IMG/VR virus record: IMGVR_UViG_2737471852_000002
Coordinates: 1-51,736 of that record
DNA from: a virus
Lineage: Duplodnaviria; Heunggongvirae; Uroviricota; Caudoviricetes
Strand: one strand, 5' to 3'
DNA: 51,736 bases
Positions within the stretch are counted from its first letter, which is position 1; every line of letters begins with the position of its first letter. Under the pieces are notes generated by a model. That model did not search any database. It was not told the DNA's origin and worked only from the letters and a program-made list of their open reading frames with translations. A program made the translations under genes and the position numbers. Positions 10,100 to 51,736 of the stretch are shown piece after piece.

Positions 10100-10217
10100 T
10101 TTATTAGAAATTTGCACTTAAATCAAAAAGTTACGGACAATTCAACCACCAATCAATAAATTAAAGGGCACATTAAAGTACACAATATTTGTGCCCTTCT
10201 CTGTTTCTTTCCCGTTA

Positions 10218-10766
10218 TCAGCTAGCTGGAAACTTTTTATACAGAGTTGAGAGCCCTACTCCATACGTTTTTGATACGCTTTGTCGTGATTCACCGGTTG
10301 CCATCCGCTCCCCCATTTCCCGCCATTGCTCATCCGTGAACTTAGGCCTGCGACCACCAACTCGCCCTTTTGCCCTGGCTACGGCCAGCCCTGCTAAGGT
10401 ACGTTCGCTATTAAGATCAGATTCATATTGTGCTGCGGAAAGGATGTTACGAAAGTTATAGCGGCCGCTGGCTGTTTTGAGATCCACGCCATCGGTAATA
10501 CTGCGGAAGTTGATACCCTTTTCCTGTAACTGCTGGAACATCAACAGCGCATGCAGAACGTTGCGGCCTATCCTGTCCAGCTTCCAGACCACCAGTTCAT
10601 CCCCCGGCTGCATAGTGGCGATCAGCCGTTTTAGAACCGGCCGATTCGATTTCCTCCCGCTGGCATGCTCTTCAAAAATTTTCTCACAACCCGCTGACTT
10701 GAGCGCCGTTAGTTGCAATTCAGTGTCCTGGTGGTTTGTTGATACTCGGGCATAACCGTAAATCAT
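10218..10766 (-). CDS. pin: Pin/Gin/Hin-family DNA invertase (serine recombinase)
   Basis: MIYGYARVSTNHQD N-terminus, resolvase catalytic domain and C-terminal HTH; AGGAGA RBS; immediately beside the invertible tail-fibre segment. Confidence 0.9.
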   Translation of the reverse strand: MIYGYARVSTNHQDTELQLTALKSAGCEKIFEEHASGRKSNRPVLKRLIATMQPGDELVVWKLDRIGRNVLHALLMFQQLQEKGINFRSITDGVDLKTASGRYNFRNILSAAQYESDLNSERTLAGLAVARAKGRVGGRRPKFTDEQWREMGERMATGESRQSVSKTYGVGLSTLYKKFPAS

Positions 10767-10825
10767 GGGATTTCTCCTGTTATGAAAACAGGAGAAACGG
10801 CGAAGCATCACCAGATTTTTGATGG

Positions 10826-10851
10826 TTATAAAAAAGGTTGGTTTGGGAGAA
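10826..10851. other. 26-bp invertase crossover site (hix/gix-like), left
   Basis: TTATAAAAAAGG-TT-GGTTTGGGAGAA; one half-site is the reverse complement of TTCTCCCAAACC, close to the gix/hix half-sites as I recall them. Confidence 0.7.
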
Positions 10852-11334
10852 GGTTCGGCATTACCCGTTGGCGTGCCTGTTCCGTGGCCTTCCGCCACTC
10901 CGCCAACAGGCTGGCTGAAATGCAACGGGGCGGCTTTTTCTGCTGAAGAATACCCGGAACTGGCAAAGGTTTACCCGACAAATAAATTGCCTGATTTACG
11001 CGGTGAGTTTATTCGTGGCTGGGATGATGGAAGAGGGATTGATACTAACCGTAGCTTGCTTTCGTCACAGGGAGATACCATTCGGAATATAACAGGCTTT
11101 ATAAATGAAGTTAAAGGCACCATTGATACAGCAACTTTCAGGTTACAGACTGGTACTGGTGCTTTTGCCTTAGCATCTCAAGCTACGCGAAATATCTATA
11201 ATAACCTAGGCACATATGAAACAAAAAATACCCCTTACACAGGATTCAGTTTTGATGCATCCAGGGTTGTACCAACAGCATCAGAGAATCGCCCTCGAAA
11301 CATTGCATTTAACTATATCGTGAGAGCAGCATAA
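10852..11334 (+). CDS. alternative tail-fibre C-terminal cassette, currently in the unexpressed orientation
   Basis: begins at the crossover with ...GLGEGSALPVGVPVPWP...GWLKCNGAAFS...YPELAKVYP...DLRGEFIRGWDDGRG, the classic variable C-terminal domain of Mu S / lambda Stf-type fibres; no start codon of its own. Confidence 0.7.
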   Translation, partial: GSALPVGVPVPWPSATPPTGWLKCNGAAFSAEEYPELAKVYPTNKLPDLRGEFIRGWDDGRGIDTNRSLLSSQGDTIRNITGFINEVKGTIDTATFRLQTGTGAFALASQATRNIYNNLGTYETKNTPYTGFSFDASRVVPTASENRPRNIAFNYIVRAA

Positions 11335-11939
11335 TGGATAAAGCAATATTAAATAGTGAGCTTATTGCTACAAAGTCGGGGGATATTACCGTTTATAACT
11401 ATGATAGTGAGACGCAGGAATATATTTCAGCTTCAACTGAATATCTTGCCATTGGTGTCGGTATTCCTGCATATTCCTGTTTAGATGCCCCTGGCACATA
11501 TAAGGTGGGTTATGCTATCTGTCGTTCTGCAAATTTTAACTCATGGGAATATGTGCCAGACCATCGCGGTGAAATCGTCTATAGCACCAAAACTGGAGAG
11601 TCAAAAGAAATCACAGCTCCGGGTGATTACCCTGAAAATACCACAACTATCGCCCCGTTAACACCATACGATAAATGGGATGGTGAGAAATGGGTGACCG
11701 ATACTGAGGCACAGCATAGCGCCGCAGTAGACACGGCAGAAGCACAGCGTCAGTCACTGATTGATGCTGCAATGGCTTCCATCAGTCTGATTCAGCTGAA
11801 ATTACAGGCCGGACGGAAGCTGATGCAGGCAGAAACAACCCGGCTTAACGCCGTGCTGGATTACATTGACGCGGTGACGGCAACAGATACCAGCACCGCG
11901 CCTGATATTATTTGGCCTGCTTTCCCTGAGACTGATTAA
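11334..11939 (+). CDS. tail fibre assembly protein (Tfa/U-type) paired with the alternative cassette
   Basis: 201 aa, ATG overlaps the cassette stop; C-terminal LQAGRKL ... LDYIDAV ... WPAFPE typical of Tfa proteins. Confidence 0.75.
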   Translation: MDKAILNSELIATKSGDITVYNYDSETQEYISASTEYLAIGVGIPAYSCLDAPGTYKVGYAICRSANFNSWEYVPDHRGEIVYSTKTGESKEITAPGDYPENTTTIAPLTPYDKWDGEKWVTDTEAQHSAAVDTAEAQRQSLIDAAMASISLIQLKLQAGRKLMQAETTRLNAVLDYIDAVTATDTSTAPDIIWPAFPETD

Positions 11940-12129
11940 CCTCAATCAATATTGGTTCCCCTTTCTCATTAATTGTTAGCTCCATGCCCTGAGGAATTTC
12001 TGTCATAGTAAAAAACCAGTTGTCCTCTGGTAATTCAATAGCCCCGGTCACATCATGAAGACCGGGGATTACTTCAGTCAAAGTAACTGGATTAAACAGG
12101 CGCACAATAAACCCTCCAGGAAAAAGCAT
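11908..12129 (-). CDS. possible small tail-fibre chaperone for the currently expressed fibre tip
   Basis: 73-86 aa ORF directly after the fibre stop inside the invertible segment; no family recognised. Confidence 0.3.
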   Translation of the reverse strand: MLFPGGFIVRLFNPVTLTEVIPGLHDVTGAIELPEDNWFFTMTEIPQGMELTINEKGEPILIEVNQSQGKQAK

Positions 12130-12883
12130 TTGATGATGGTCTGCCGTCGTACATCTGGCAGCGGGCATAAAAACCGGTATTTGTTACCTGATCATCCACG
12201 ATCATTGAAACGTGAACATTATTAGGTGTGCTCTCGTAATCTGTTCTTATTCTTTCCGCGATACTGATAAAACGTGAAAGTTTAGGCAGTGCAATTGGGT
12301 AAACGACTTTAGCCAGTCCATTATCATTAGACCCACCCGTTCCAAAGACTTCTATTGCACCATCTGACCAGCGAATCCATGCACCATTGGCATTAGCTCC
12401 TCGCTGAATGATATATCTGGCTTCTCCCAAACCAAGGTATGTGAGAATGTCAGCAATAGTATTTTTCCCAATAATGTCACGGCCAACAGAAGTTAAATCA
12501 GTCTGCGCTGCTGTATCATTTCCAGTGAAATATGGGAGTTTATTTGCACCTGTTGCGAGCCCAGCTAATGCCGACAGCGTGGCATCAAGCGCCTGGAAAT
12601 CTTTCCCGAAAGCGGTCCCCATTTTGGATATAAACCCGTTCAGGTCTCCATCATCAAGCACATCCAGCCCGCTTTTGTTGGCGGTGTACTGCGCCAACGC
12701 TGCCGCGATAAAGCTGGCTTGCCGAATAGCTTTGTTGACCTGTGCGCTGGATGCTTTACCTGCCGTAAACCCTGAAAGCAGAGCCGGAAGTGCTTCCCAG
12801 TCAGCTTGTGAGGTGACGTTAGCGTTCGGATCAAGCGCGAAAGGTTTAAAGTTGTTTATTGCCATTAGAGTATTGTCCCCCAT
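12092..12883 (-). CDS. tail fibre protein (constant N-terminal part fused to invertible C-terminal part)
   Basis: the reading frame crosses the right crossover site at ...TYLGLGE; Ala/Gly/Thr-rich fibre-like shaft; start codon uncertain (12883 or a downstream ATG). Confidence 0.7.
   Translation of the reverse strand: MGDNTLMAINNFKPFALDPNANVTSQADWEALPALLSGFTAGKASSAQVNKAIRQASFIAAALAQYTANKSGLDVLDDGDLNGFISKMGTAFGKDFQALDATLSALAGLATGANKLPYFTGNDTAAQTDLTSVGRDIIGKNTIADILTYLGLGEARYIIQRGANANGAWIRWSDGAIEVFGTGGSNDNGLAKVVYPIALPKLSRFISIAERIRTDYESTPNNVHVSMIVDDQVTNTGFYARCQMYDGRPSSNAFSWRVYCAPV
12422..12447. other. 26-bp invertase crossover site (hix/gix-like), right
   Basis: TTCTCCCAAACC-AA-GGTATGTGAGAA, inverted relative to 10826-10851 with complementary core dinucleotides (AA/TT). 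Confidence 0.7.
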
Positions 12884-13545
12884 GCTCCAACATCGAACCC
12901 GCCGATGTATTCGTTATCCATATCAAACCCAAAGAATTTAGAGCCTTCTGACGGTGTTTCTACCGAAGGCGTTTCAACATCACCGGCCCATACGCCAGCT
13001 GATTTAACGGTGAGATAGCCCTGTTTGATAGCGGCGATCAGTTCGAGAGACACATCAGAAATATCAGTTTCAGGGAAAACCCAGACCGAAATCGTCATGT
13101 CCTGGTTGTCGACGATCTGCATCCTCAGGCCTGAGCCTGCGGTAGCAGCGTCAAGGATGGGAGGCAGAGAGTCGTTCCGACCGTCCCAGTTGTTGATAGC
13201 GATTTTCGCTTTCAGAATGATGCGGTACGTCTCATCGCTTAGCGTCGTATAGCCAGAATCAGGATCATATGGCCCTTGCCAGATGCCCTGGTCATACCCA
13301 AGCCCGTCAGTGTCCCAGCTGAAATAAACTCCGCTAATTGGCTGGCTGACTATGCGACTGCGTCCGATCCACAGACCGAGGATGTCGAGCTGTACACCGA
13401 CAGCAGTATCGATATCGAAGGCTGTTATAAGCCCTGACATAGTGCTGGACACATCAATCAGCGGGCGGGTGCTCAGATCTATATGGTCAAAAAAGAGTGG
13501 CTTGGTAGCGTGGTAGTTAGTGATCAGTTCGGTGTATTTGCTCAT
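12865..13545 (-). CDS. baseplate/tail protein (Mu gp48-like position)
   Basis: 226-aa ORF between the baseplate J-like gene and the tail fibre gene. Confidence 0.55.
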   Translation of the reverse strand: MSKYTELITNYHATKPLFFDHIDLSTRPLIDVSSTMSGLITAFDIDTAVGVQLDILGLWIGRSRIVSQPISGVYFSWDTDGLGYDQGIWQGPYDPDSGYTTLSDETYRIILKAKIAINNWDGRNDSLPPILDAATAGSGLRMQIVDNQDMTISVWVFPETDISDVSLELIAAIKQGYLTVKSAGVWAGDVETPSVETPSEGSKFFGFDMDNEYIGGFDVGAWGTIL

Positions 13546-14741
13546 GAGGTCACCGTGATACTGATATTCGCGGTGCTACAGGACGCTGAAGCATCATAGG
13601 CAATATCAATGTTTGATGCCGATACGCTGCCAGACGACTTACCGATCAGCAGGTCGGTAATATCGTAATAGCGGGCATTCCCGCCGCTCACAACGCCGAG
13701 GTTTGCCGGGGAATAAATACGGCTCAGCAGAACGTCGTCGCCAATTGTTAGGCCATTTATATAATCGGCAACAGCCTGTTTAATCTGCTCGCCGATTTGA
13801 GAGGTATAGCCGGTAAAAACTTTCAGGGTAATGGCTACGAAAATTGGCACATCGGTAGAGCGCGAAAAACTGATGACGTGAGGATTACCATAAGTATCCG
13901 GCACTGTGACAGAAGTTTTACCGTAAGTTGCGGTTCCCTGCCCTTTATTCCCCCTGATGGTCTGGGCTATCTCGGTAACATCCCCTCCATCGACGATGGC
14001 GGAAATAGAGTGTGGCGGCAGCCCGTTGCTGTCGGTTGCCCCAGTGTCGTTCTCATATAGTTTGTGACGTGTCACGCCAGCAACATTAGCGATAGCACCG
14101 TCGACACCTTCAAACGGTGTGATCGATGGTAGCGCGACGCTTTGCCCCTGCCGAATGCGCAGCTCTGCGTCGGTTTCGGCTGGTGAACCGACAGTAGCCG
14201 CAACTGGATTGGTTACCGACACCCAACCTCGGGTCGGGGTGTTGATAGTGGTAATAGTCCCGGCCAGCGCCGCAACCGAACCGCTATTCGCACATGTGGC
14301 CGTCACCAGCACAGTACCATCAACGCCGATCGCCACACTCGCTGGAAAATTCCAGATAATGCCGTTTTTATCCCGTGCGGAGCCATTCGTGATAGTCGTG
14401 CCTGCCGTACCGGTTAACAGAAGGTCAGCAGTAGAGTTTGTCGCTACTTTTCGCGTGATCCCGTTAATTTTCACATTGTTGCTAAGCGCTGCGGCCTGCG
14501 CTGTCGTCGGTGAAAAAGAGTTGTAGATCTCGATAGCGGTATTGTTAGCGTCATGCACCGCAAGAGCCACCAGCGCGACCATTTGCCCATCTTTGCTGTC
14601 TGGTTCGAGGTAGGCATCACTACCGTAAATCTGCCTGAAATAGCTGGTCAGTGTATCAAGGATTGTCTGGTAATCAGGCGCACTAATCCCCTGGGCGGTT
14701 ACCGTTGCCGATAGCCCCAGCGTGTCGAGGTTCAAAGCCAT
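13542..14741 (-). CDS. baseplate J-like protein (Mu gp47-like)
   Basis: 399 aa, position and size in a Mu-type baseplate cluster; 4-nt start/stop overlaps with neighbours. Confidence 0.65.
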   Translation of the reverse strand: MALNLDTLGLSATVTAQGISAPDYQTILDTLTSYFRQIYGSDAYLEPDSKDGQMVALVALAVHDANNTAIEIYNSFSPTTAQAAALSNNVKINGITRKVATNSTADLLLTGTAGTTITNGSARDKNGIIWNFPASVAIGVDGTVLVTATCANSGSVAALAGTITTINTPTRGWVSVTNPVAATVGSPAETDAELRIRQGQSVALPSITPFEGVDGAIANVAGVTRHKLYENDTGATDSNGLPPHSISAIVDGGDVTEIAQTIRGNKGQGTATYGKTSVTVPDTYGNPHVISFSRSTDVPIFVAITLKVFTGYTSQIGEQIKQAVADYINGLTIGDDVLLSRIYSPANLGVVSGGNARYYDITDLLIGKSSGSVSASNIDIAYDASASCSTANISITVTS

Positions 14742-15095
14742 TTATGCCTCGCTTGTTACAGTCGTCTGGCCGTAGATTGTGTCAATGGAGGAAGTGAAGG
14801 TGACGCGACGGCTGGTGCCGTCATAATTGGTATCGAAGGAAAGAATCGACAGAACGCCCGGTGTATCCTGTATGCGTTCGCGTATAGCCAGGATGTAGAC
14901 ATCTGATCGCTGCTTCCCAAGCACTGACTGAACATACGGCGTGCCTTCCGTCAGATCGAGAAACCACTGACCGCGCCACAGCTCGAAACGGGTTTTTACG
15001 GCCTGGGCGACACATTCCGGACTGTCGATAAGGAAAGTATCGTCACCCTGGCCGAAAGTGTAATCGCCTTCAGTATCTTCGCGACGGTATCGCAT
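14742..15095 (-). CDS. baseplate protein (gpW / Mu gp46-like)
   Basis: 117-aa ORF immediately upstream of the J-like gene. Confidence 0.55.
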   Translation of the reverse strand: MRYRREDTEGDYTFGQGDDTFLIDSPECVAQAVKTRFELWRGQWFLDLTEGTPYVQSVLGKQRSDVYILAIRERIQDTPGVLSILSFDTNYDGTSRRVTFTSSIDTIYGQTTVTSEA

Positions 15096-15835
15096 TATTG
15101 CGGCCCTCCGGTAGTTCCCCCGCCAGTCTGTACTCCGCCATGTTTATGCGTGGCGACACTGATACCAGAAGCTGTTACGTCATTCGTTACCGTCACCGGC
15201 CCAAGCATCGTCGCAGTACCGCCGCTTTCTCCCATTCCCTGAGACAGGTTACCGTTAATCGTTACGTTGCCGTTCAGCGTGATAGTCGGGGATGTGATTG
15301 TCGTTCCACCCTCAGCCGTAGCCGTAAGCTTGCCCGGCGTTTTAACGGTGATGTTATGCCCTGCTGCGACCTCTACGAACGCCGAGCCATCATCGGTTCG
15401 CAGCTGCGCGGCGCTGGTACTGATACCGCTGATTTTCTGCGCTTGCGACTGCGGGCCAACGATGGCGAACGCATCAGATAAGTCATGCTGGCGCGGGTCG
15501 ACGGTCTCCTGAACGCCGCCGCTCTGCCACCAGAAATCGATGCAACGGTCGGCAAAGATCAGCAGGCACTCGTCGCCTTCTTTTACCGGAAAGGTCAGCG
15601 TGCAACCGCCGCCGCGCGGGAAGATAACCGGCACATCCACCAGCGGTTTTAATTCGGTGGAGCCATCGCCAACAATACCGCGAAGCGCTACCTCTACTGT
15701 GCAGGTAACAGTGTCAGGATCGAACGACTGAATGATGCCGGGCATCGCTACGCGCATCTGGGTAGACACCGAATCGACAATGGCCTGCGCGGTCTGCTGC
15801 TCACCGCCGATCTGTGATTGAGTTGGAATTGGCAT
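15095..15835 (-). CDS. baseplate spike/assembly protein (gpV / Mu gp45-like)
   Basis: 246 aa with Gly/Thr-rich C-terminal repeats (GGTTITSPTITLNGNVTINGN). Confidence 0.55.
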   Translation of the reverse strand: MPIPTQSQIGGEQQTAQAIVDSVSTQMRVAMPGIIQSFDPDTVTCTVEVALRGIVGDGSTELKPLVDVPVIFPRGGGCTLTFPVKEGDECLLIFADRCIDFWWQSGGVQETVDPRQHDLSDAFAIVGPQSQAQKISGISTSAAQLRTDDGSAFVEVAAGHNITVKTPGKLTATAEGGTTITSPTITLNGNVTINGNLSQGMGESGGTATMLGPVTVTNDVTASGISVATHKHGGVQTGGGTTGGPQ

Positions 15836-16057: not shown

Positions 16058-16348
16058 ATGGGATTTAGATTTCGTAAAAGAATCCGGATTGCGCCCGGAC
16101 TCGCGATCAACATTAGTAAAAGCGGAGTAAGCACTTCAATTGGTGGTAAAGGTTCCACCATTAACATCGGAAAAAAAGGCGTAAAGATGACAAATGGCCT
16201 TCCCGGCACGGGGCTGTCGCATACCACTAACCTTTACTCTCCCGGGAAATCGACAGAAAAAAAACAACTTACTCATAAGCAAAAAATAATTAGAAACATC
16301 CTGTTCGTAATTATTGTGTTTATTATAATTAAAGCTCAATATTTTTGA
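16058..16348 (+). CDS. small membrane-anchored protein (moron), N-terminal domain resembling the family I recall as DUF4236
   Basis: 96 aa; MGFRFRKRIRIAPGLAINISKSGVSTSIGGKGSTINIGKKG then a C-terminal hydrophobic helix; AGGAG RBS; opposite strand to the tail genes. Confidence 0.45.
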   Translation: MGFRFRKRIRIAPGLAINISKSGVSTSIGGKGSTINIGKKGVKMTNGLPGTGLSHTTNLYSPGKSTEKKQLTHKQKIIRNILFVIIVFIIIKAQYF

Positions 16349-16354
16349 CGCATG

Positions 16355-16385
16355 CCCGCCTATCTGGCGGGCTATTTTACTTTTC
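16355..16385 (+). terminator. intrinsic terminator
   Basis: gcccgcc-tatct-ggcgggc followed by tattttacttttc. Confidence 0.6.
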
Positions 16386-16707
16386 GGCAGTCGTATGTTG
16401 CATACTGACGCGGCGAATCCATGCTGGCTTGCAGCCACTGAGCATTCAGGATTGCTTTACCATTACGGCCAATAAACTCCATTCCTACCCATCGCCCTGG
16501 TTGATTGGTCGCTAAGCGCCATTCAATTTTGACGTTGTTATAATCACCGTCATTTTTAAGAAATGTCACTTTTTGCGATTCAGGTTTAGCTCCGTTTACG
16601 CGAGCGAAACCATCATCAGCCCAATGGATTTTGAAATCACCACACTGAGAATCAGCAATAGCTTGGAAAGAAAATAATGCTGCAATGATAAAAATTACGA
16701 GTTTCAC
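16372..16707 (-). CDS. small secreted protein (moron) with signal peptide
   Basis: 111 aa from GTG at 16707 (GAGG RBS); KLVIFIIAALFSFQAIA then DSQCGDF...; inserted between baseplate hub and spike genes. Confidence 0.45.
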   Translation of the reverse strand: MKLVIFIIAALFSFQAIADSQCGDFKIHWADDGFARVNGAKPESQKVTFLKNDGDYNNVKIEWRLATNQPGRWVGMEFIGRNGKAILNAQWLQASMDSPRQYATYDCRKVK

Positions 16708-16717: not shown

Positions 16718-17782
16718 TCAGTAGTTTGTTTTTTGCATAGCACCAGCATTAACTAAATCACGACTGCCACGCGCAAAACACATCAAATCCATGTACCACG
16801 CCTGACCTCTGGTGTCGCCAGTATAGTCGATAGCTTTGACGATATAAACGCCATCTGTCGCAATGCTGGCAGCCTGTGACGTTGTGCCGGTCAGTGCGCG
16901 GTTGCCGTTCTCTTCCGTTTCAGTGATACGACCGGGCGACTGTGCGATTTCGCTATTGCCGAGCGCGGCGCGGTACACCGAAGCCTGATCGAGCTGGATA
17001 AGACCATTAATGCGGATGTTTGGGTTTATCAGGCACCGCACGTTTACGCCGCCGCCCATTGTCTGTTGCGGCATACCGATCAGGCCAGTATTGGCATTCA
17101 ACACAATGGCTTCGTGAATATATTTATCCTCCGGCACCATCTGGACCTGACCATCCACCAGTTGCCATGTCGCTTTGCACTGCGCAGCAATATTATCCAT
17201 CACGTTGCGGCTGGATGAGTAAATCGCGCGGCCACGAGGAAACACGGTATCAGGAAAATCGCCGGTAATGCCCTGTGTCACGCCGAACGCGTTGAAATCC
17301 TGCATCGTCGCCCGGTGCAGATCCGCAACGGTATAGCCAGCGGCAAGCGTGGTGATGGTGGTCGCATAGAGGAACGCTTCGTGATCACCAATGGCCTGAA
17401 TCAACACCCAGGAATCCGTAATGTTGTCCTTCCCGGTGACGGTGAAGCGAATATCACCGTCAAAAATCAGGCCGTAGTTCTGACCGTTCACCTGCCCTAT
17501 CTGGTCTGGTGAAATCTCCCGGGACACACCAACCTGGCTCGCATCAACATCCGGCACTATACCGTCATACCCGGCAATGATGCGAATTTTGGCAAACTCC
17601 TGCCCAAGTATCTTGTTCGTGGTATCGGTCGAAAGGTTGTAAATTTTCACGTTCGCCACGCGTGGCCAGCGTGTGTCTGCCCACTCGATCTGGAACGTGA
17701 CCTTAAAGTCAGACAGGGAAACGCCCTGCCCGTTCTGGTCCAACAGTTGCAGCTCAAAATGGCGCATCCAGTTAAGAGACAT
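16718..17782 (-). CDS. baseplate hub protein (Mu gp44 / gpP-like)
   Basis: 354 aa at the hub position of the Mu-type tail cluster. Confidence 0.55.
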   Translation of the reverse strand: MSLNWMRHFELQLLDQNGQGVSLSDFKVTFQIEWADTRWPRVANVKIYNLSTDTTNKILGQEFAKIRIIAGYDGIVPDVDASQVGVSREISPDQIGQVNGQNYGLIFDGDIRFTVTGKDNITDSWVLIQAIGDHEAFLYATTITTLAAGYTVADLHRATMQDFNAFGVTQGITGDFPDTVFPRGRAIYSSSRNVMDNIAAQCKATWQLVDGQVQMVPEDKYIHEAIVLNANTGLIGMPQQTMGGGVNVRCLINPNIRINGLIQLDQASVYRAALGNSEIAQSPGRITETEENGNRALTGTTSQAASIATDGVYIVKAIDYTGDTRGQAWYMDLMCFARGSRDLVNAGAMQKTNY

Positions 17783-41473: not shown

Positions 41474-41475
41474 GC

Positions 41476-42979: not shown

Positions 42980-43012
42980 TTAAAATAAGAACATTGGTAT
43001 TACTATTTGAAA

Positions 43013-43836: not shown

Positions 43837-44103
43837 TTGACTGAACGAAACCCGTCACTTACCCCTCAGCACATGACTGCGACCTCAACCATTTTGACTC
43901 CTGGAAAGGATGAGGTTGTAATTACGTTTTACTCTCATGAATTTACTTATCTTTTACCAGAAAACGTTCAACCGCAAACTGGCATTCAGGTTAAAGTAGA
44001 TCTGAGGCCTGAGATTGGTATTTCACTTACAACAGACCAAGCAATTGCGCTTACGAAGGCTCTTAAAACCAATTTGGAAGCGAATGGACTTTGGAAACAG
44101 TAA
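43837..44103 (+). CDS. hypothetical protein, first gene of the cassette downstream of cI (rexA/rexB position)
   Basis: about 88 aa; start ambiguous (TTG at 43816 or 43837, GGAG RBS); no family recognised. Confidence 0.35.
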   Translation: MTERNPSLTPQHMTATSTILTPGKDEVVITFYSHEFTYLLPENVQPQTGIQVKVDLRPEIGISLTTDQAIALTKALKTNLEANGLWKQ

Positions 44104-44159
44104 ATCCTGGTTCGGATAATACAACTGTTACGCCTTCAAGTGGTAAGGCGGGATTTGTT

Positions 44160-44639: not shown

Positions 44640-44647
44640 TCACCCAA

Positions 44648-44670
44648 CCCGGCCACCGCGCCGGGTTTTT
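44648..44670 (+). terminator. intrinsic terminator ending the cI / downstream-cassette transcription unit
   Basis: cccggc-caccgc-gccggg followed by TTTTT. Confidence 0.7.
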
Positions 44671-44742
44671 ACTGCCCTACTCTTCCCGCAACATCAGCAC
44701 ATCCAGTGCCAGCTCCACAGCCAGATCGACCTGGTCTTCCTG

Positions 44743-44880
44743 TCACAACACCTGAATCATCTCTATCAGCGCCTCTCTTGAGGGCTCGTGCTTCTCAACC
44801 AGCAGCTGCATAACCGCTATCCCGATAACCTGCGCTATCTGCGGGTGCATTTCTGCGAAAAACTCATCCTCATTTGACAT
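44743..44880 (-). CDS. possible 45-aa small protein between the terminator and OL
   Basis: AAAGGGG RBS 8 nt before ATG at 44880; MSNEDEFFAEMHPQIAQVIGIAVMQLLVEKHEPSREALIEMIQVL; below the ORF-track cutoff. Confidence 0.3.
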   Translation of the reverse strand: MSNEDEFFAEMHPQIAQVIGIAVMQLLVEKHEPSREALIEMIQVL

Positions 44881-44951
44881 GCCAACACCCCTTTATGATG
44901 TTTTTTTGAGCATAACAGCACTTTTTACAAAAATAAATTAACTTTAAAATC

Positions 44952-45020
44952 ATACCTTTAGTATTTTTATTAAATATCATAATACTGGCGGTATTGATAT
45001 AAAATAATACCCGGAGTATT
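44952..45020. promoter_or_regulatory. OL-like operators / pL region
   Basis: AATACtggcgGTATT, AATACccggaGTATT and ATACctttaGTAT share the AATAC-N5-GTATT design of the sites between cro and cI. Confidence 0.55.
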
Positions 45021-45132
45021 ATCACCTCATCCAAACAACGCACACAAATGCGCAGATGGCCCAAAACTCCGCTGGCCGGCGATAAGGCGATAAGGGTGAA
45101 ACGTCCTCAGGATGTAAAGGATGGATTGATTT

Positions 45133-45252
45133 ATGGCAGACAACTACTCGTTAGCGACTTTGGTTTCTACAGCAGCTATAGCGGTTGCAATAACCAATCT
45201 GGTATGGACTGTGATGATGCAGATCACCATCCACAAACTCAAAGACAGATAA
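45133..45252 (+). CDS. possible 39-aa hydrophobic peptide, first ORF of the early-left operon
   Basis: AAGGATGG RBS; MADNYSLATLVSTAAIAVAITNLVWTVMMQITIHKLKDR has a single TM helix; the alternative overlapping 70-aa ORF 45048-45260 lacks an RBS. Confidence 0.3.
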   Translation: MADNYSLATLVSTAAIAVAITNLVWTVMMQITIHKLKDR

Positions 45253-45474
45253 CCACTTGAGAGTGGCAATACTAAAGCTGATTTGACTCGGTTTTGGTAT
45301 TCAAAACAATACTTAAACGCGCAGTAGGTTTGAAACGTTCCGCCAGCTTGGCGACAAGGGCAAAGCACAGAAGTGAGCTTCGCGGTGGTGAATTGCAGAG
45401 TTAAAGCGCTCAACCGTGAAGATCAGCGCCGCAGCAACACCAGCGAAGTTCACTCAGAAAAACTGGAGTACATC

Positions 45475-45681
45475 ATGGTTCATCAGCACTACGGTACACA
45501 GACAGTAAACCGCGGCGCAGTTCAGCCGGGGATGCTTGTAAAACACAAAGACTCAACCTGGACCGCATCTGCTAACGCACGCGGTCGCCTGTATCTTCAC
45601 CGTGGCATCGAACGTACCTACACCAAAGATTTGCTGGTTGAGGTTTATCTAAACGGTTTAGGACATGGCCTTAGCCATTAA
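45475..45681 (+). CDS. hypothetical early protein (Kil-like position)
   Basis: 68 aa from ATG at 45475 with GGAG RBS; upstream of recE. Confidence 0.4.
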   Translation: MVHQHYGTQTVNRGAVQPGMLVKHKDSTWTASANARGRLYLHRGIERTYTKDLLVEVYLNGLGHGLSH

Positions 45682-45691
45682 CGGAGTGAGT

Positions 45692-45853
45692 TATGCAGGA
45701 GAAAAAATGCGCGTACTGCCGCAAGCCGATCAAGCAAGGGAAGGAAGTTAAAAACGAACTGCTCTTTATCCACGGCACGCAGTTGAAACGCGAGCAACGT
45801 GATTACTGTTCAGTACGTTGCGCTTCGTTCGACCAGATGGCCCACGAAGCATA
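45692..45853 (+). CDS. small zinc-ribbon protein (YdaE-like position)
   Basis: 53 aa, GGAG RBS; CAYC...CSVRC cysteine pairs. Confidence 0.45.
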
Positions 45854-45992
45854 ACGAAAACCCCGCGCAAGGCGGGATTCACGTCCGGTGCCACCGACCA
45901 AAGTTACACCGGAATTTATACCAAACCAAAAAACATCCAATGGGCGCTATCTCTGGCACGGGGATTCTAACACTCAAAAAAGAGGATCTCAC

Positions 45993-48902
45993 ATGGAATT
46001 TTTCCATCTGATAAAAGCCAGTCAGAAGTCTGGCAAGAAAGATGCAGTGATTTGGTTCACTGCGAAAAGTGTAGCGCGCGCCAATCTCCAACTCGATGTG
46101 GCACTGGAAGAAGCCGGAATTGAAGAAACTGGCCGCGGTAAAGATTATGCCAAACCAATCCGCACCGATTTCCCGGTATATGACGACCTGCCGGAAGAAG
46201 GCGCAGTGGATTACACCTGGTGCGAACGCTACGAACTGCAGAACGATGACCGCACCTGGCTGCCAAAAGTCACAGCTGAAAACTCTGACGAGAAAACGGC
46301 TCAGACCGTTGATAGTCACATAACTACTGAGTCAACGCTGCCAGAAACCGCTGGCATCACGCTGGACGAACACGACGACGACTCAACCCTCTACCCGGTA
46401 GTGCAGATGCCGTTTCGTAAGCAACTGCTTTCCCAGTTCACCGCCGACGAACTGCGCCACCACGTAACCCGCGAAGAGTACGAAGCTATCGGCGCGCTGG
46501 AGATGGACACTGATAACAGTTACGTCCAGAACTTGCTGTTAGCTGCTGAGAACTGCCCGGAAGTGAAGGGTTACGACACCAAAGACCTGTGGCGCTACAC
46601 CGATGCCATTCGCAAAGTGTTCAGCCAGGACAAGCGTCACGAACTCGCGCTGGTACTCCGTTTCACCAGAATGTGGGCGGCGACTGATTACATTGACCGT
46701 GGCATCCTGGCGCGTGAATGGGCTGCCGGTAATCACATCAGTAGTGTTCAGCGTACTGATTCCGGAACCAATGCCAACGGCGGTTACGTCACTGACCGTG
46801 GACCTGATACATACCATACCCTTGACACTCTCGATTTAGAGATTGCATGTGCCCTTCTGCCTATGGACTTCAACCACTTCGAGATCCCGGGCAGCATTCT
46901 TCGTCGCGCTAAAGAAATCGTGACCAAAAAAGAAGAACCGTGGAAATCATGGAGCAGCATTCTGCGCAATCAACCCGGCGTTCTTGGCGTTAACCGCACA
47001 GCTATTTTTAACCTGATACGTATCGCGCCGGAAAATATTCATCTAACTCCTGTCGCTCACCTGGAGTTTGTTAACCGGACCATGACTGCTGCGTTTAATG
47101 CTGCTGTTGAGTTATTGCCATTGCATGAAGCTGAGCCCGCAACACAGGAAATTCCCCAACCTGAAAGTAAGGAGTCTCCACGCAAACCCTTCTGCACTCA
47201 CGAAGAGAACCTGCAACGCGTACGTGAAGAAGAAGCACGCCGCCGCGCAGAGGAAGCGACAGCACAACCACATAAAGCCGAACAAGAACTGGTTAAAAAT
47301 GTCGGCAACGGAATATTCGATGTTACGGCTTTACTGCAGAACTCAGCAACTCATGGCACGAAACAGGCTACGGAAACCACCAGCAATGTGCAGGTTCAAG
47401 AAACTGTCAGTGATGAAAAAAATGTTGGTAATGAAATGCAGTCAGGCGAAAGCAGTCTGGAAACTGGTGAAGAGTCACATCCCGGCCAGCAGGCCGATGT
47501 AAACCAAAATACGGAATCTGTCGCTCAAAATAGCGATTCTGTAAACCAGACTGAACCAGTTTTGGCACACGTCGAGCCAGAGGCGCAATCTGACGAACAA
47601 GCTGTTTTTTACCCCGATTACTTCGAGCCTGGGCGCTATGAAGGTCTGCCGAACGAGGTTTACCACGCTGCCAACGGAATCAGTTCCACCCAGGTAAAAG
47701 ATGCGCGCGTTTCGCTGATGTACTTCAATGCGCGCCACGTTGAGAAAACCATCGTCAAAGAGCGCTCCTCAGTGCTGGACATGGGAAACCTGGTACATGC
47801 GCTGGCGTTGCAGCCAGAACAGCTCGATGAAGAATTTAGCGTTGAACCCGTAATTCCGGAAGGTGCATTTACCACCACGGCAACGATCCGCGCGTTTATT
47901 GATGAGTACAACGCCAGCCTGCCAGCGCAACTGAGCGCAGACGATATCAAAGCTTTGCTGGATGAATACAACGCCACCCTGCCAGCGCTGGTGCCGCTGG
48001 GCGCTAGCCTGGATGAAACGGCGCAGAACTATATGGCGCTGCCAGCTGAATTCCAACGTATCGATGCAGATCAGAAGAAGACAGCAACAGCAATGAAGGC
48101 GTGCATCAAAGAGTACAACGCCACCCTGCCAGCGCAGATTAAAACCAGCGGCAGCCGCGACGCACTACTCGAACAACTTGCGATTATCAATCCTGACCTG
48201 GTCGCGCAGGAAGCTCAGAAGCTGCAACCGCTGAAAGTCTCTGGCACGAAGGCCGATCTGATTCAGGCCGTGAAGGCAGTCAAACCAGATGCAGTGTTCG
48301 CCGACGAGCTGCTCGATGCTTGGCGCAACAACCCGGAAGGGAAAGTGCTGGTTACCCACCAGCAACTTGCCACCGCGCAGGCAATTCAGTCAGCACTGCT
48401 CTCGCACCCGACCGCAGGCATGCTGCTAACCCACCCGAGCCGCGCCGTTGAGGTGAGCTACTTTGGCTTTGACGAGGAGACGGGACTGGAAGTTCGTGTG
48501 CGCCCTGACCTTGAGATCGACCTAGACGGCGTGCGTATCGGTGCTGACCTGAAAACCATCAGCATGTGGAATGTTAAGCAGGAAAGCCTGCGCGCCAGGC
48601 TACACCGGGAAATTATTGAACGTGATTATCACCTGAGCGCGGCTATGTACTGCGAAACCGCAGCGCTGGATCAGTTCTTCTGGATTTTCGTCAACAAAGA
48701 CGAGAACTACCACTGGATCGCCATCATCGAGGCATCCGCTGAACTACTGGAGCTGGGTATGCTCGAGTACCGCAAAGCGATGCGCAATATCGCAACCGGA
48801 TTCGACACAGGTGAATGGCCAGCGCCAATCACTGCTGACTACACCGACGAACTGAACGACTTCGACCTGCGCCGCCTTGAAGCGCTGCGTACTCAGGCAT
48901 AA
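45993..48902 (+). CDS. recE: RecE-like exonuclease VIII
   Basis: N-terminal and central regions parallel Rac RecE as I recall it (VIWFTAKSV..., FTRMWAATDYIDRGILAREWAAGNHISSVQRTDSGTNANGG); C-terminal nuclease domain; AAGAGGA RBS before ATG at 45993. Confidence 0.8.
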   Translation: MEFFHLIKASQKSGKKDAVIWFTAKSVARANLQLDVALEEAGIEETGRGKDYAKPIRTDFPVYDDLPEEGAVDYTWCERYELQNDDRTWLPKVTAENSDEKTAQTVDSHITTESTLPETAGITLDEHDDDSTLYPVVQMPFRKQLLSQFTADELRHHVTREEYEAIGALEMDTDNSYVQNLLLAAENCPEVKGYDTKDLWRYTDAIRKVFSQDKRHELALVLRFTRMWAATDYIDRGILAREWAAGNHISSVQRTDSGTNANGGYVTDRGPDTYHTLDTLDLEIACALLPMDFNHFEIPGSILRRAKEIVTKKEEPWKSWSSILRNQPGVLGVNRTAIFNLIRIAPENIHLTPVAHLEFVNRTMTAAFNAAVELLPLHEAEPATQEIPQPESKESPRKPFCTHEENLQRVREEEARRRAEEATAQPHKAEQELVKNVGNGIFDVTALLQNSATHGTKQATETTSNVQVQETVSDEKNVGNEMQSGESSLETGEESHPGQQADVNQNTESVAQNSDSVNQTEPVLAHVEPEAQSDEQAVFYPDYFEPGRYEGLPNEVYHAANGISSTQVKDARVSLMYFNARHVEKTIVKERSSVLDMGNLVHALALQPEQLDEEFSVEPVIPEGAFTTTATIRAFIDEYNASLPAQLSADDIKALLDEYNATLPALVPLGASLDETAQNYMALPAEFQRIDADQKKTATAMKACIKEYNATLPAQIKTSGSRDALLEQLAIINPDLVAQEAQKLQPLKVSGTKADLIQAVKAVKPDAVFADELLDAWRNNPEGKVLVTHQQLATAQAIQSALLSHPTAGMLLTHPSRAVEVSYFGFDEETGLEVRVRPDLEIDLDGVRIGADLKTISMWNVKQESLRARLHREIIERDYHLSAAMYCETAALDQFFWIFVNKDENYHWIAIIEASAELLELGMLEYRKAMRNIATGFDTGEWPAPITADYTDELNDFDLRRLEALRTQA
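47904..48135 (+). repeat. three near-identical 25-bp intragenic repeats in recE
   Basis: gaNtacaacgccaNcctgccagcgc at about 47904, 47964 and 48111, each encoding EYNA(S/T)LPA. Confidence 0.7.
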
Positions 48903-48907
48903 GGGGA

Positions 48908-50026
48908 ATGATGATGGAAAACACGAATATCGTAACCGCTGAACAGCAGACTCCAAACACGATCTCAGCCAGCAATGCCATTTTCAACGTGCAGGCTTTA
49001 ACCCAGCTTCAGTCTGTCGCCGGGTTGATGGCACAGGCAGCCGTAACGGTGCCTGAGCACCTCCGCGGCAATCCGGCAGACTGCATGGCCATCATCATGC
49101 AGGCGATGCAGTGGGGTATGAACCCTTACGCCGTGGCGCAAAAGACGCACCTGGTTAACGGTGTCCTGGGATACGAAGCGCAACTGGTTAATGCGGTGAT
49201 CTCCAGCTCAAACGCCATCGTTGGCCGCTTTCACTATGAGTACGAGGGCGACTGGTCGAAATGTGCCAGCAGCCGCGAGATAACCGTTAAAAAGCCTGCG
49301 AAAGGTGGCGGGACGTACGACAAGAAAGAAATGGTACGCGGTTGGGAAAGTGCTGATGAACAAGGACTGTCGGTACGGGTAGGTGCCGTTATTCGCGGTG
49401 AAAGTGATATCACCTGGGGAGAGCCTGTTTTCCTCTCCAGCGTAATCACACGTAATTCTCCACTTTGGGTATCAAACCCGAAACAGCAGATCGCTTATCT
49501 GGCACTCAAATACTGGGCGCGCCTGTATTGCCCTGCAGTTGTTCTTGGTGTGTACACCCCTGATGAGATTGAACAGCGCACAGAAAAAGAGATCAACCCA
49601 ACGCCGCAACGCGTTAGCCTGGCTGATATCTCAGGTGACACCGTCACAACCACGCAAAGCGCACAGGAATCGTCGGTAAATGTCGACTCTCTTGCCGATG
49701 ATTTCCGCGAACGCATCGAATCTGCTCAGGACGTGGATAGCGCCAAATCGCTGCGTGCCGACATTGAAACGGCGAAAGCTACGCTGGGATCCGCACTATT
49801 CACCGAGCTGAAAAACAAAGCCGTAAAGCGTTATTACCTAGTGGATGCACGCAACAAGGTTGAGGAGGCTATTAAATCCCTGCCCCAGCCCGACGAGCCG
49901 CATGCAGCCGAACGGTTCGCTGAAGCCGAGCGCATGCTTGCATCTTCAAAGCGTCACTTAGGCGATGAACTGCACGATCAATTCAGCATCACCCTGGCGG
50001 ATATGAAACCGGAATACGTGGCCTGA
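48908..50026 (+). CDS. single-strand annealing protein of the RecT/Red-beta superfamily
   Basis: 372 aa immediately downstream of recE; ...NPADCMAIIMQAMQWGMNPYAVAQKTHLVNGVLGYEAQL... parallels the Red-beta/RecT core. Confidence 0.65.
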   Translation: MMMENTNIVTAEQQTPNTISASNAIFNVQALTQLQSVAGLMAQAAVTVPEHLRGNPADCMAIIMQAMQWGMNPYAVAQKTHLVNGVLGYEAQLVNAVISSSNAIVGRFHYEYEGDWSKCASSREITVKKPAKGGGTYDKKEMVRGWESADEQGLSVRVGAVIRGESDITWGEPVFLSSVITRNSPLWVSNPKQQIAYLALKYWARLYCPAVVLGVYTPDEIEQRTEKEINPTPQRVSLADISGDTVTTTQSAQESSVNVDSLADDFRERIESAQDVDSAKSLRADIETAKATLGSALFTELKNKAVKRYYLVDARNKVEEAIKSLPQPDEPHAAERFAEAERMLASSKRHLGDELHDQFSITLADMKPEYVA

Positions 50027-50064
50027 CGAGACCGGGAGGGGTAACCCTCCCTCAAGGAGATTAT

Positions 50065-50307
50065 ATGCGACTGATCAATCGAGGAAGTAAGCAATCACCT
50101 TTAGCTCGCCAAGCATGCGACATCGCGCTGGCAGCTCACTTGCAAACATATGGCGACTATGGGCGAAGCAAGATGAAAGAGACTTATACGGTGAAGGTTG
50201 AAGGCGTGAAAGTCTGGGTGGAGGTGGTGAACCGAAAGGCGAGCTACGTGGCCACAGCGATGACCGGCATGCGCCGTCTCCGCTCCCTGCCCGGGCAGGT
50301 TGGTTGA
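50065..50307 (+). CDS. hypothetical protein
   Basis: 80 aa with strong AAGGAG RBS; between the annealing-protein gene and the excisionase-like gene. Confidence 0.45.
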   Translation: MRLINRGSKQSPLARQACDIALAAHLQTYGDYGRSKMKETYTVKVEGVKVWVEVVNRKASYVATAMTGMRRLRSLPGQVG

Positions 50308-50348
50308 TAAAGATTTTGAATGGCCCGAACGGGCAACTGGAGAGAGCT

Positions 50349-50546
50349 ATGGATGATATTTTGGTAACGTCAGACCTGACCAGTCGCTACAAAATTTCAC
50401 GCAAAACCCTTTGGTCATGGCAAAGTGCAGACACAATGCCTCGGGGCTTCGTATGCCCGTTCCCACCCCCTGACTGGCCCGGCAACCCTAACCGCTGGCG
50501 CTCTGAGTCAATCAAAGAGTGGGAGGATAAAAAGAAGATAAATTAA
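50349..50546 (+). CDS. xis: excisionase / AlpA-like small DNA-binding protein
   Basis: about 65 aa from ATG at 50349 (GGAGAG RBS); [15 protein letters not shown]...PRGF; adjacent and convergent to the integrase. Confidence 0.55.
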
Positions 50547-51736
50547 CTGAAGGGCTCTCCGATGATCTCTTCAAGATGGCTCTGCCAAACGCGGAGCCAG
50601 TGTTTCTGATCATCGATATAGTCATGAAGGTTGTAATGCGCCATAACCCCCACCATCTGATGCCCGAGCAGCTTTTCAATTACGTGCGGCGGGCAACCTA
50701 ACTCAGAGAGATTTGTGGCTATCGTCCGCCTCATATCATGAAGCGACCACTCTGCCATACCTGTTCCATTCCAAATAGAACGGGCGTAATTGGATGCCAC
50801 AGGTGAATGAACGGGCGAATCTTTGATCCCGCCATCAATTTTACGTTGTGAAGTCACCAGGTGATTGGTGTTTATTTTCTTGAGGTGATTTCTGACCAGG
50901 TTAACGGCGGCGTCTGAGAGTCCCCTTCTAATATGTACCCGAGTTTTATAACTGCCCGCAGGCACGACCCACTCATTATCATCCAATCGAAACCATGATC
51001 TCTCACTAAGTCGAATCTCAGCCGTACGGCATCCGGTAAGCATAATAAATTTCACCAGGAAAACGGACTCTATCGACATATGGCTTTTCAACCACTGATA
51101 GATTTTGCGCAGATCGTCATCGTCCATCCTGCGAGTTCTCTTTTTAGGCTTTTGCCCGACATCAGATGGCAGTAATCCCTCGAGTGGGTTTGAGGCGATC
51201 ACACTTCTGTTAACGCAGAACCTAAACGCCCGTTTGCACAGCGAAAGCATGTAATGAGCCATCACCCTGCTTTCTATAGAATCGAAGACGTTGATCCAGT
51301 GCATTTTCGCTGTGTTATCGACTTTGACATTCTTCATCGGTTCGGCGATATGTTTCTCAAACACCTGGCGATAGTAATCGACTTTAACTAGCCCGTTAGC
51401 GATACAGTGCCTTTCAATCCAGTAATTGAACGCTTCGGCAACGGACATCGCTTCCTGTCGGGTCTGCTTATCCAGCTTCACCTGCTCTCGCGGATCCAGT
51501 CCCTCAGTTAACCAGTTTCTGAATTGTTGGCGACGCTCTCTTGCCTGGGTGATACTCATTGCAGGATAATCACCAACATTGAGTTTTACCGCTTTACCGG
51601 CCCAGCGATACCGATAGAAAAATGATATTTTTCCGGCCTGGCTGATTCTGGCGTTGAGCCCGTGCGAATCAGAAATAATCTCGATATCATCTCTTTTCTT
51701 GCCGAGCGCCTTCCTGAGCTTTGTGTCGGTGATCAT
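50543..51736 (-). CDS. int: tyrosine integrase (P4-type, with N-terminal arm-binding domain)
   Basis: 397 aa; N-terminal [10 protein letters not shown]...[10 protein letters not shown]; C-terminal catalytic region with HDMRRT and [18 protein letters not shown]; ATG is at the window edge. Confidence 0.9.

Follow-up and report, generated by a model that had tools for sequence, protein, structure and literature searches.

The window analysed here, the 51,736-nucleotide (nt) Caudoviricetes record IMGVR_UViG_2737471852_000002 of IMG/VR, is a piece of Escherichia coli chromosome from the tonB-yciI-kch region, and its positions 10098–51736, together with some 170–200 bp past the window end, very probably make up one apparently intact temperate prophage of ~41.8 kb: a lambdoid myovirus resembling SEN34 (Brunovirus), equipped with the integration module of phage phi80 and inserted between yciI and kch, in the phi80 attB that lies at the yciI 3' end. 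Its gene content, homologies, junction, repeats and an in-frame alternative fibre fusion are established from the sequence. From ~10100 to the end, GC content rises to 0.46–0.58 and open reading frames (ORFs) lie in long co-oriented blocks. An earlier note on this DNA had described a single mosaic temperate prophage, in which a lambda-like backbone of integration, recombination, immunity, replication, Q and lysis genes was joined to a Mu-like morphogenesis block. Pfam matches and identities to lambda and phi80 back the mosaic prophage and its backbone, and every gene class named in the note was found, in the order and at the coordinates given there. The Mu-like label does not stand, and is replaced by that of a SEN34/Omnitron-type module with a virion that, as judged from its proteins, is like those of Pam3, XM1 and E217. 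The phage group is already known: further complete E. coli genomes carry the same architecture at this site, and isolated phages share the architecture.

The yciI-side end of the prophage and its integration genes consist of the following features.

9803–10099, plus strand: host gene yciI, 100% identical in amino acids (aa) to E. coli YciI, with its last codons and stop contributed by the att core and the phage arm
10081–10097: prophage-host junction core of attR type (B-O-P'), the 17-bp ATTTAAGAAAGTGTTCT, overlapping the yciI stop codon
50065–50307, plus strand: DUF4060 protein (Pfam)
50349–50546, plus strand: Xis, assigned via the 99.4% nt identity of the int-xis block to phi80
50543–51736, minus strand: Int (Pfam Arm-DNA-bind_3 and Phage_integrase)

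A three-way comparison showed the core ATTTAAGAAAGTGTTCT to be common to the window, the phi80 attP and the unoccupied attB of E. coli strain VL46, where the kch-side sequence is GAATAGAGATTCAATATTT. The core ends at 10097, with yciI on its left and, on its right, a sequence that is identical to the phi80 P' arm and runs on into pinL, so that the prophage start at 10100 given in the earlier note is accurate. At the empty site, yciI ends in TGA; in the window its stop codon is a TAA (10097–10099) that spans the core and the phage arm and leaves the YciI protein unaltered. At the opposite end, the int-xis-DUF4060 block is 99.4% identical to phi80 at the nucleotide level, and both Int and RecT are 100% identical in amino acids to those of phage mEp237. 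The phi80 int is transcribed away from attP, the core of which lies ~170 bp upstream of the int start according to the phi80 annotation, and a related prophage of E. coli GPEC60-12-649 is arranged as kch / int ... pin / yciI; by analogy, the int-side junction (attL) of our prophage must lie just beyond the window end, about 170 bp out. It had been proposed that the attachment site and one prophage end were both outside the window, which holds for the int-side junction, whereas the other junction is inside, at 10081–10097. The window does end at the int start codon, as had been stated, if one takes the ATG that PGAP uses in a relative; the phi80 record annotates the int start 15 nt further upstream.

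Further inward, the genes follow the lambda-like order that had been described for Int, RecE plus an annealing protein, CI/Cro/CII, O with iterons, RusA, Q and the pR'/tR' unit, as supported by Pfam, by the iterons and by the alignment of pR'.

48914–50026, plus strand: RecT (Pfam)
45993–48902, plus strand: RecE, Exonuc_VIII and PDDEXK domain (Pfam)
45693–45854, plus strand: YdaE
45475–45681, plus strand: Kil (PHROG)
43013–43723, plus strand: CI, HTH_3 and Peptidase_S24 (Pfam)
42717–42908, minus strand: Cro (Pfam)
42416–42637, minus strand: CII (Pfam)
41476–42330, minus strand: O initiator, Phage_rep_O (Pfam)
40622–41491, minus strand: helicase loader of IstB/DnaC type (Pfam)
within 38999–42330, minus strand, between the regulator and the helicase loader: DUF4752, DUF1627 and a 75-aa ORF (Pfam/PHROG)
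38999–39337, minus strand: regulator (Pfam/PHROG)
38261–38857, minus strand: DUF1367 (Pfam)
38055–38261, minus strand: 68-aa ORF
37762–38052, minus strand: YbcO/DUF1364 (Pfam)
37403–37765, minus strand: RusA (Pfam)
37266–37406, minus strand: YlcG
36487–37269, minus strand: Q antiterminator (Pfam)
34694–34975 and 34962–35348, minus strand: holin-family genes, Phage_holin_3_7 and Phage_holin_8 (Pfam)
34080–34694, minus strand: GH19 endolysin, Glyco_hydro_19 (Pfam)
33691–34083, minus strand: Rz, overlapped by Rz1/LysC
33528–33872, minus strand: Rz1/LysC (Pfam LysC), overlapping Rz

Amino-acid identity to the lambda proteins is 44% for CI, 47% for Cro, 48% for CII, 38% for O and 37% for Q. The arrangement is lambdoid as well: divergent CI and Cro genes have a multi-site operator between them, pL has an operator set of its own, CII lies downstream of Cro, the origin iterons are inside the gene of the O-type initiator, the helicase-loader gene that comes next is of IstB/DnaC type and does not encode lambda P, and Q is placed with pR' and a short terminated transcript ahead of the late operon, on which it would act as in lambda. 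The regulatory DNA comprises three units.

42940–42954, 42964–42978 and a degenerate third site near 42994–43008, between cro and cI: OR operators (motif)
44951–44965, 44981–44995 and 45006–45020, downstream of the cI operon: OL operators (motif)
36357–36449, minus strand: pR'-tR' unit, with −35 TTTACT at 36449–36444 and −10 TAATTT at 36427–36422

The operator motif is a 15-bp palindrome, AATACY-N3-RGTATT, with 5 sites in the window against 0.22 expected. A repeat search located five iterons TTACCTGATTCGGGTAA at 41868–41983 inside O, adjoining an AT-rich tract. Lambda pR' can be aligned with the DNA downstream of Q over the −35, the −10 and 20 bases from the start of transcription; CAACGATGGGTTAAT is identical and the initial transcribed region nearly so. 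It was this alignment that located pR', which a promoter consensus scan had missed owing to its non-consensus −35. The tR' hairpin (36390–36363) has an 11-bp stem followed by a T run, folds at −23.9 kcal/mol (z = −2.95) and would yield an RNA of ~60 nt. Nut sites were not found; a hairpin between cro and cII (42670–42711), with an 18-bp stem and a 6-nt loop and without a T run, sits where lambda has nutR/tR1 and may be a nut-like, put-like or processing site.

From known phage families, we infer how the prophage is regulated, that it is inducible and that its fibre switches. In the lysogen, CI would bind the 15-bp operators (AATACC-N3-RGTATT) at OR and OL. RecA-stimulated self-cleavage of CI, through its S24 domain, would free pR to drive cro-cII-O-loader-nin-Q and pL to drive kil-recET-xis, upon which O would bind its five internal iterons and recruit the DnaC-type loader. 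Q would then modify RNA polymerase at the lambda-like pR', and read-through of tR' and of a terminator further downstream, in a cargo (moron) locus described below, would produce a single long late operon of lysis, terminase, head, contractile-tail, baseplate and fibre genes. The virion part of this operon consists of the following genes upstream of the fibre.

32183–32656, minus strand: DUF2280 protein in the small-terminase position (Pfam)
30251–31873, minus strand: large terminase (TerL), phrog_2, recognised only through PHROG
28782–30251, minus strand: portal, Pfam Phage_portal_3 (DUF1073, PF06381), 2.8e-105
28160–28768, minus strand: Mu-F-domain head morphogenesis protein, Pfam Phage_Mu_F
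26913–28145, minus strand: DUF2213 putative scaffold (Pfam)
26405–26908, minus strand: cement/decoration protein, Pfam Phage_cement
25452–26393, minus strand: major capsid protein, Pfam PF09950
23183–25410, minus strand: neck/connector genes (tail terminator, head protein, Neck1-type completion protein, DUF4054, STY1053-family; Pfam and PHROG), full-length against relatives
22019–23179, minus strand: contractile sheath, DUF3383 (Pfam)
21568–22008, minus strand: tail tube, KPP10_Orf10 (Pfam)
21139–21564, minus strand: tail assembly chaperone, Phage_TAC_15 (Pfam)
18694–20961, minus strand: tape-measure protein with an SLT lytic transglycosylase domain (Pfam)
18092–18694, minus strand: Dit-like protein (Pfam)
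17785–18090, minus strand: plug of Pam3-gp18 type, Pfam Pam3_gp18
16718–17782, minus strand: baseplate hub, Pfam E217_GP41
15095–15835, minus strand: spike of gpV type (Pfam/PHROG), full-length on relatives
14742–15095, minus strand: sheath initiator, gp25-like (PHROG and a relative's annotation), full-length on relatives
13542–14741, minus strand: Baseplate_J (Pfam), full-length on relatives
12865–13545, minus strand: DUF2612 (Pfam), full-length on relatives

Searched by tblastn, every structural gene from TerL to the N-terminus of the fibre matches Salmonella phage SEN34 at 49–98% aa identity, and the conserved structural genes match Citrobacter phage Omnitron at 92–100%, the variable tape-measure protein and fibre tips being lower. 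At the DNA level, 83% of the late region aligns with Omnitron at 95.7% identity. In the Protein Data Bank (PDB), the capsid matches those of cyanophage Pam3 (8hdt) and Vibrio phage XM1 (7kmx), the sheath matches XM1 gp6 and that of Pam3, and the portal matches the portals of Pam3 and Pseudomonas phage E217. The STY1053-family gene also contains a 21-bp in-frame tandem repeat unit in 2.6 copies (25147–25201).

This block resembles Mu only in its functional gene order. Scanned with the same Pfam library, the proteins of Mu belong to Portal_Mu (PF06074), Mu-like_Pro (PF10123), Mu-like_gpT (PF10124), Phage_sheath_1, Tail_tube (PF10618), GpP/GPD and Phage_Mu_Gp48, whereas their counterparts in the window belong to Phage_portal_3, DUF2213 (PF09979), PF09950, DUF3383, KPP10_Orf10, E217_GP41 and DUF2612. 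Phage_Mu_F (PF04233) and Baseplate_J (PF04865) are the only families common to both, and they are non-diagnostic because both are widespread beyond Mu. When all window proteins were compared with Mu by tblastn, matches were confined to Pin/Gin (52%), Baseplate_J (27%), TerL (29%) and Rz/Rz1, and neither Pfam nor tblastn found a Mu-type portal, protease/scaffold, capsid, sheath, tube, hub or Gp48 wedge in the window. The same comparison with SfV, the textbook hybrid of lambda with a Mu-type tail, returned Rz/Rz1, Q, RusA and CI and zero structural genes, and membership in the SfV type was rejected for this reason. No transposase (MuA/MuB) was seen among the scanned ORFs of 10100–51736, integration being by a tyrosine integrase at a specific site.

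It is accordingly most improbable that the element is a true lambda/Mu hybrid of the kind represented by SfV, P27 and ST64B, with a morphogenesis and tail module of Mu lineage, as the earlier note had it; we regard this reading as largely refuted already. It draws on collinearity with the Mu late genes (terS-TerL-portal-F-scaffold-capsid ... sheath-tube-chaperone-TMP-hub-spike-gp25-J-I-S-U-U'-S'-invertase, TMP being the tape-measure protein), on the Mu-F domain and on the resemblance of Baseplate_J to Mu gp47 and of Pin to Gin. The functional order is indeed that of Mu, but it is common to simple-baseplate myoviruses, including SEN34, Pam3, XM1 and E217, whose proteins are homologous to those of the window; judged by these homologies, the virion proteins are of the SEN34/Pam3/XM1/E217 lineage. 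Gin-family fibre switches, moreover, also occur in P2-like prophages and beside the phi80 attP. The head genes had been described as F-like with a protease/scaffold, and the Mu-F domain and a DUF2213 scaffold are present; the protease is not supported, since Pa193 gp24, a member of the DUF2213 family, is documented as a putative scaffold and not as a protease (PMC11456595). A PDB sequence search with the DUF2213 protein of the window gave zero matches. The main value of the analysis is therefore one of correct annotation: the prophage belongs among the lambdoid myoviruses of SEN34/Omnitron type, which have virions like those of Pam3, XM1 and E217, and should not be grouped with Mu-like or SfV-like hybrids.

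SEN34 can be induced with mitomycin and forms plaques; it has the morphology of a myovirus, with a contractile tail, its regulatory and replication region is lambda-like, and it has been assigned to a new lambda cluster (PMC5261728). It is now the type of the genus Brunovirus and belongs to the 'temperate 26' lambda cluster. Heads of about 55–58 nm are reported for phages like SEN34. Like our prophage, it has int, recombination genes, cI/cro/cII, O, nin, Q and lysis genes, followed by TerL, a DUF1073 portal, MuF, DUF2213, capsid, DUF3383 sheath, baseplate and fibre, and the head regions are 88% identical at the DNA level. It differs in its integrase (34% aa identity), in having exo/bet/gam for RecET and P for the DnaC-type loader, and in having its own small terminase and lysis genes and an O-acetyltransferase moron, while lacking Pin and an invertible fibre segment. 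Megablast aligned 38% of the late-region query to SEN34 at 88% identity, and SEN34 was not among the early-region matches listed. By the convention of the International Committee on Taxonomy of Viruses (ICTV), a genus corresponds to nucleotide identity of ~70% over the whole genome. As DNA similarity is limited to this 38%, membership of the same genus is not established, and the comparison suggests that SEN34 and our prophage are of the same kind but probably not of the same genus.

Closer relatives are Omnitron (CP115737) and the prophages between yciI and kch of E. coli GPEC60-12-649, WEM25, LR-33, CH468 and AR_0119, in which the late region from Pin to a metallopeptidase gene is 92–100% identical in amino acids and 95.7–97% in DNA; the fibre tips of this group differ from those of the window. 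The GPEC60 prophage shares the insertion site, Int, RecT, Q, a moron and the lysis genes, and differs in having HicAB, YdaT-type and P-type genes in place of the immunity and replication region at 38876–45316, whereas Omnitron has other lysis and integration genes. Lambda itself shares the CI/Cro/CII/O/Q order and homology (37–48% aa), the iterons inside O, a pR' whose sigma-pause region is identical and after which comes a short terminated RNA, and morons in the rex-like slot and the slot downstream of Q. Our prophage differs from lambda in that no lambda head or tail genes were recognised in it and its tail is contractile, that it has RecET for Red and a DnaC-type loader for P, and that its int is transcribed away from the att site, as in phi80. 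With phi80 it shares the attP core, the P' arm, int-xis-DUF4060, Pin and the bacterial site at the yciI 3' end. The att-int-xis-pin module of phi80 travels between phage types; phi80 and mEp237 are described in the records used here only as lambdoid, and we take them to be siphoviruses.

The joined architecture could in principle reflect two neighbouring elements, a lambdoid remnant beside an unrelated myovirus tail/head cluster or tailocin. GC content does shift along the prophage, from 0.46–0.50 at the ends to 0.55–0.58 in the head genes, and the two halves match different database phages. Relatives, however, have a single pair of phi80-type ends, the late genes share a single strand downstream of Q/pR', a second integrase is absent, and SEN34 packages the same joined architecture as one genome. 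At least 80% of the late module is carried by 16 complete E. coli genomes, and both halves are contiguous in at least five of them. A tandem of two elements was rejected on the single pair of ends, the one-strand late operon and the contiguous recurrence, and is scarcely credible beside a single prophage.

The late operon ends, as the earlier note had recognised, in a fibre module that an invertase would switch, a claim supported by Pfam, by the inverted sites and by Pin.

10218–10766, minus strand: Pin-type serine DNA invertase, Resolvase and HTH_7 (Pfam)
10838–10852: invertase-proximal crossover site, a 15/15 inverted repeat with 12421–12435
10853–11334, plus strand: silent alternative fibre C-terminus Sv' (tail-collar; Pfam Collar)
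11334–11939, plus strand: fibre assembly chaperone U' for Sv', 201 aa and complete (Pfam Caudo_TAP, 3.6e-30)
11908–12105, minus strand: chaperone stub for the currently expressed tip, 65 aa (positions 1–66 only of the 145 of phrog_5400)
12092–12865, minus strand: tail fibre gene in its present orientation, constant part plus gp53-like tip (PHROG tail fibre), with the crossover site 12421–12435 inside

The layout is thus Sc-Sv-U / U'-Sv' / pin. Pin is 100% identical to phi80 PinL over the 172 aa of the latter and 52% identical to Mu Gin, and the 14-bp crossover motif TTCTCCCAAACCAA occurs in exactly two copies, inverted, at 10838–10851 and 12422–12435, against 0.03 expected by chance. When the constant part is connected to Sv' across the core, the frame is open and reads ...TYLGLGEGSALPVG... 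into the tail-collar domain. This fused form, followed by a 200-aa chaperone, is annotated as the tail fibre in a related prophage of a different genome, ECONIH5, where the gp53-like tip is silent and from which the flipped arrangement is known. By analogy, Pin, encoded beside the att site, would flip a 1.57-kb segment and change the receptor-binding tip, joining the constant fibre N-terminus either to the gp53-like tip, as at present, or to the tail-collar tip with its own full-length chaperone. As in the Mu G segment and other systems of the Gin/Cin/Pin/Hin type, fibre C-termini would be exchanged in frame in an Sc-Sv-U / U'-Sv' / invertase arrangement, between inverted crossover sites with the TTCTCCCAAACC half-site and by a serine invertase. 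The Mu segment, in contrast, is ~3 kb long, the remaining virion module of Mu is of other families, and the U of our prophage has only 65 aa.

Similarity to phi80 covers window positions 10078–10852 (phi80 stretch 4835–5609), from the att core through pinL, and ends at the crossover site. Since it stops there, and since the phi80 annotation has only tail-collar gene fragments beyond pinL where our prophage has a whole invertible module, the phi80 pinL region looks like a decayed copy of such a module; pinL and the collar fragments beside the phi80 attP may be what is left of an invertible fibre cassette of the kind that is complete here. The ECONIH5 prophage, near torT, has its invertase annotated as frameshifted (5729–6291 of its record stretch) and its fibre segment flipped, and looks like a switch frozen by decay.

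To assess intactness, we mapped 48 prophage coding sequences (CDS), annotated by PGAP in the regions shared with the GPEC60 relative, onto the window. All but one (47/48) were full-length, with start codon and stop, one start lying at the tail-chaperone frameshift site; the single exception was the fibre chaperone of the expressed orientation. Between 12420 and 31873, 19,454 bp align to the GPEC60 prophage without a gap. The check for inactivating frameshifts or deletions that the earlier note had set was therefore essentially negative, and a defect caused by frameshifts was rejected.

Several observations nevertheless weigh against an intact prophage of the proposed kind. The 65-aa chaperone stub aligns to the N-terminal part (45%) of Tfa proteins of 139–146 aa and lacks their conserved C-terminal half. 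The genes for the small and large terminase, directly adjoining in relatives, are parted here by a 308-bp insert, which could lower TerL expression. No homologue of N, cIII or gam was recognised by Pfam and tblastn (for N, also by PHROG), N proteins being too divergent for this to prove absence. The int-proximal junction (attL) lies outside the window, so that only one prophage end is visible. No single isolated phage in the phage collection matches the whole element, the top early-region match, mEp237, covering 47%. Inducibility and fibre inversion are inferred, not observed. Most of these points would fit a defective (cryptic) prophage that no longer makes infectious particles, and the frameshifted invertase of the ECONIH5 relative indicates that decay does occur in this prophage family.

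Set against a cryptic state are the 47 full-length genes and the gapless alignment over 19.4 kb, together with the 98–100% identity of Int, Xis, RecT and Pin to those of the viable phages phi80 and mEp237. The alternative fibre orientation has a complete pair of tip and chaperone. Even the cassette of Sv and the short chaperone ORF recurs: the best of 175 E. coli genomes match it from the crossover site onward at 96–99.8% nt identity, and the stub ORF is 100% identical in strain 210205630, where it lies in a P2-like prophage. The terminase insert, finally, recurs with an intact TerL in other genera. A cryptic prophage is on balance unlikely, if a more serious contender than either a Mu-lineage hybrid or a tandem of elements, and the single temperate prophage described here is probably functional.

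The 308-bp insert (31874–32181), delimited against the GPEC60 relative in which it is absent, carries a small gene of its own.

31945–32157, plus strand (antisense to the late operon): gene for a 70-aa protein of two HEAT repeats, in the gap between the small and large terminase genes

The gene is preceded by AGGAGG and occurs in 5/5426 complete E. coli genomes; it was found in no record of the phage collection and has no PHROG family, and a search of 5.8 billion proteins returned about seven protein clusters. Its antisense position is kept in E. coli, Salmonella and Yersinia, beside the same kind of TerL, with the Salmonella and Yersinia copies 61–62% identical in amino acids to that of the window, while its small-terminase neighbour varies between DUF2280, a 573-nt 'terminase small subunit' and Terminase_2. 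For this gene, pN (nonsynonymous) is 0.26–0.32 against a pS (synonymous) of 0.71–0.86; synonymous sites are saturated, and dN/dS is 0.05–0.19 where computable. By these values the gene is under strong purifying selection, and we are fairly confident that it is a real, selected gene. It is a tentative suggestion, and in our view a doubtful one, that it encodes an undescribed accessory factor of SEN34-type phages, for example one expressed in the lysogen; a role in packaging, or in excluding competing phages or satellites, is speculative.

The limits of database similarity mark the joints of the mosaic. Similarity to Omnitron begins in the pin region and extends as far as 33307, and that to mEp237/phi80 covers 35392–38876, 45316–51736 and the att-pin stretch as far as the crossover site ending at 10852; these limits place the real joints at ~33.3 kb and ~10.85 kb. 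Unassigned cargo genes had been said to cluster at the joints, at 32–33.6 kb and 35.3–36.4 kb. The first cluster, consisting of the HEAT gene, a metallopeptidase and a 61-aa ORF, does sit at a joint or close to one, but the second is a classical moron slot within the lambda-like part, with Q/tR' on one side and the holin on the other. Our present understanding of phage mosaicism is unaltered by this prophage. The cargo genes, with the terminator through which late transcription would have to pass, are as follows.

32687–33307, minus strand: putative phage metallopeptidase, PhageMetallopep (Pfam)
33362–33547, minus strand: 61-aa ORF
35471–35490, minus strand (35490 to 35471): strong terminator of the moron between Q and holin (terminator scan)
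35583–35732, plus strand: convergent 49-aa Pro/Gln-rich ORF of the same moron
35713–36282, minus strand: 189-aa membrane-type protein of the same moron
16058–16348, plus strand: DUF4236 protein, moron in the baseplate cluster (Pfam)
16372–16707, minus strand: 111-aa protein with a signal-peptide-like N-terminus, moron gene between hub and spike
43816–44103 and 44091–44639, plus strand: two ORFs of 95 and 182 aa in the rexAB position after cI (functionally unannotated PHROGs, no PADLOC match)

All cargo genes fall into functionally unannotated PHROGs or none. The moron between Q and holin matches phrog_11870 and phrog_14506, both functionally unannotated, and has no PADLOC match; its 49-aa ORF contains an 18-bp in-frame tandem repeat in 2.2 copies, encoding PQPAPQPKPAPQP. 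In the baseplate-cluster moron (16058–16707), the functionally unannotated phrog_3443 was matched, and the DUF4236 gene is absent from Omnitron and SEN34. For the metallopeptidase, the 'transposase' label of phrog_513 is not credible against the Pfam match. The 182-aa ORF after cI has a hydrophobic C-terminus, and between the rexAB-position ORFs and OL lies a 45-aa ORF (44745–44881, minus strand), which shares a hairpin at 44648–44672. PADLOC, run on ten cargo candidates, returned only marginal matches (a HEAT-ARM fragment at E = 9e-5, and a CARF/Csa3-like winged helix-turn-helix domain in the DUF1627 protein at E >= 2e-4), and a defence-system reading of them was rejected on that ground. On the practical side, then, the prophage looks inducible, carries what would be a host-range switch and holds several lysogen-side cargo genes.

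Across the whole window, a tRNA scan found none, and Rfam at gathering thresholds returned zero families. Positions 1–9500, between tonB and yciI, hold a separate phage-like remnant of low GC content (0.38–0.41), with a Dit-like baseplate protein (1–810), a TMP_3 tape measure (946–3123), an HNH protein (5243–5530), a small resolvase-type recombinase (8473–9021) and several unassigned ORFs; no capsid genes were seen in it. In strain VL46, the equivalent island is bounded by a large serine recombinase adjoining tonB.

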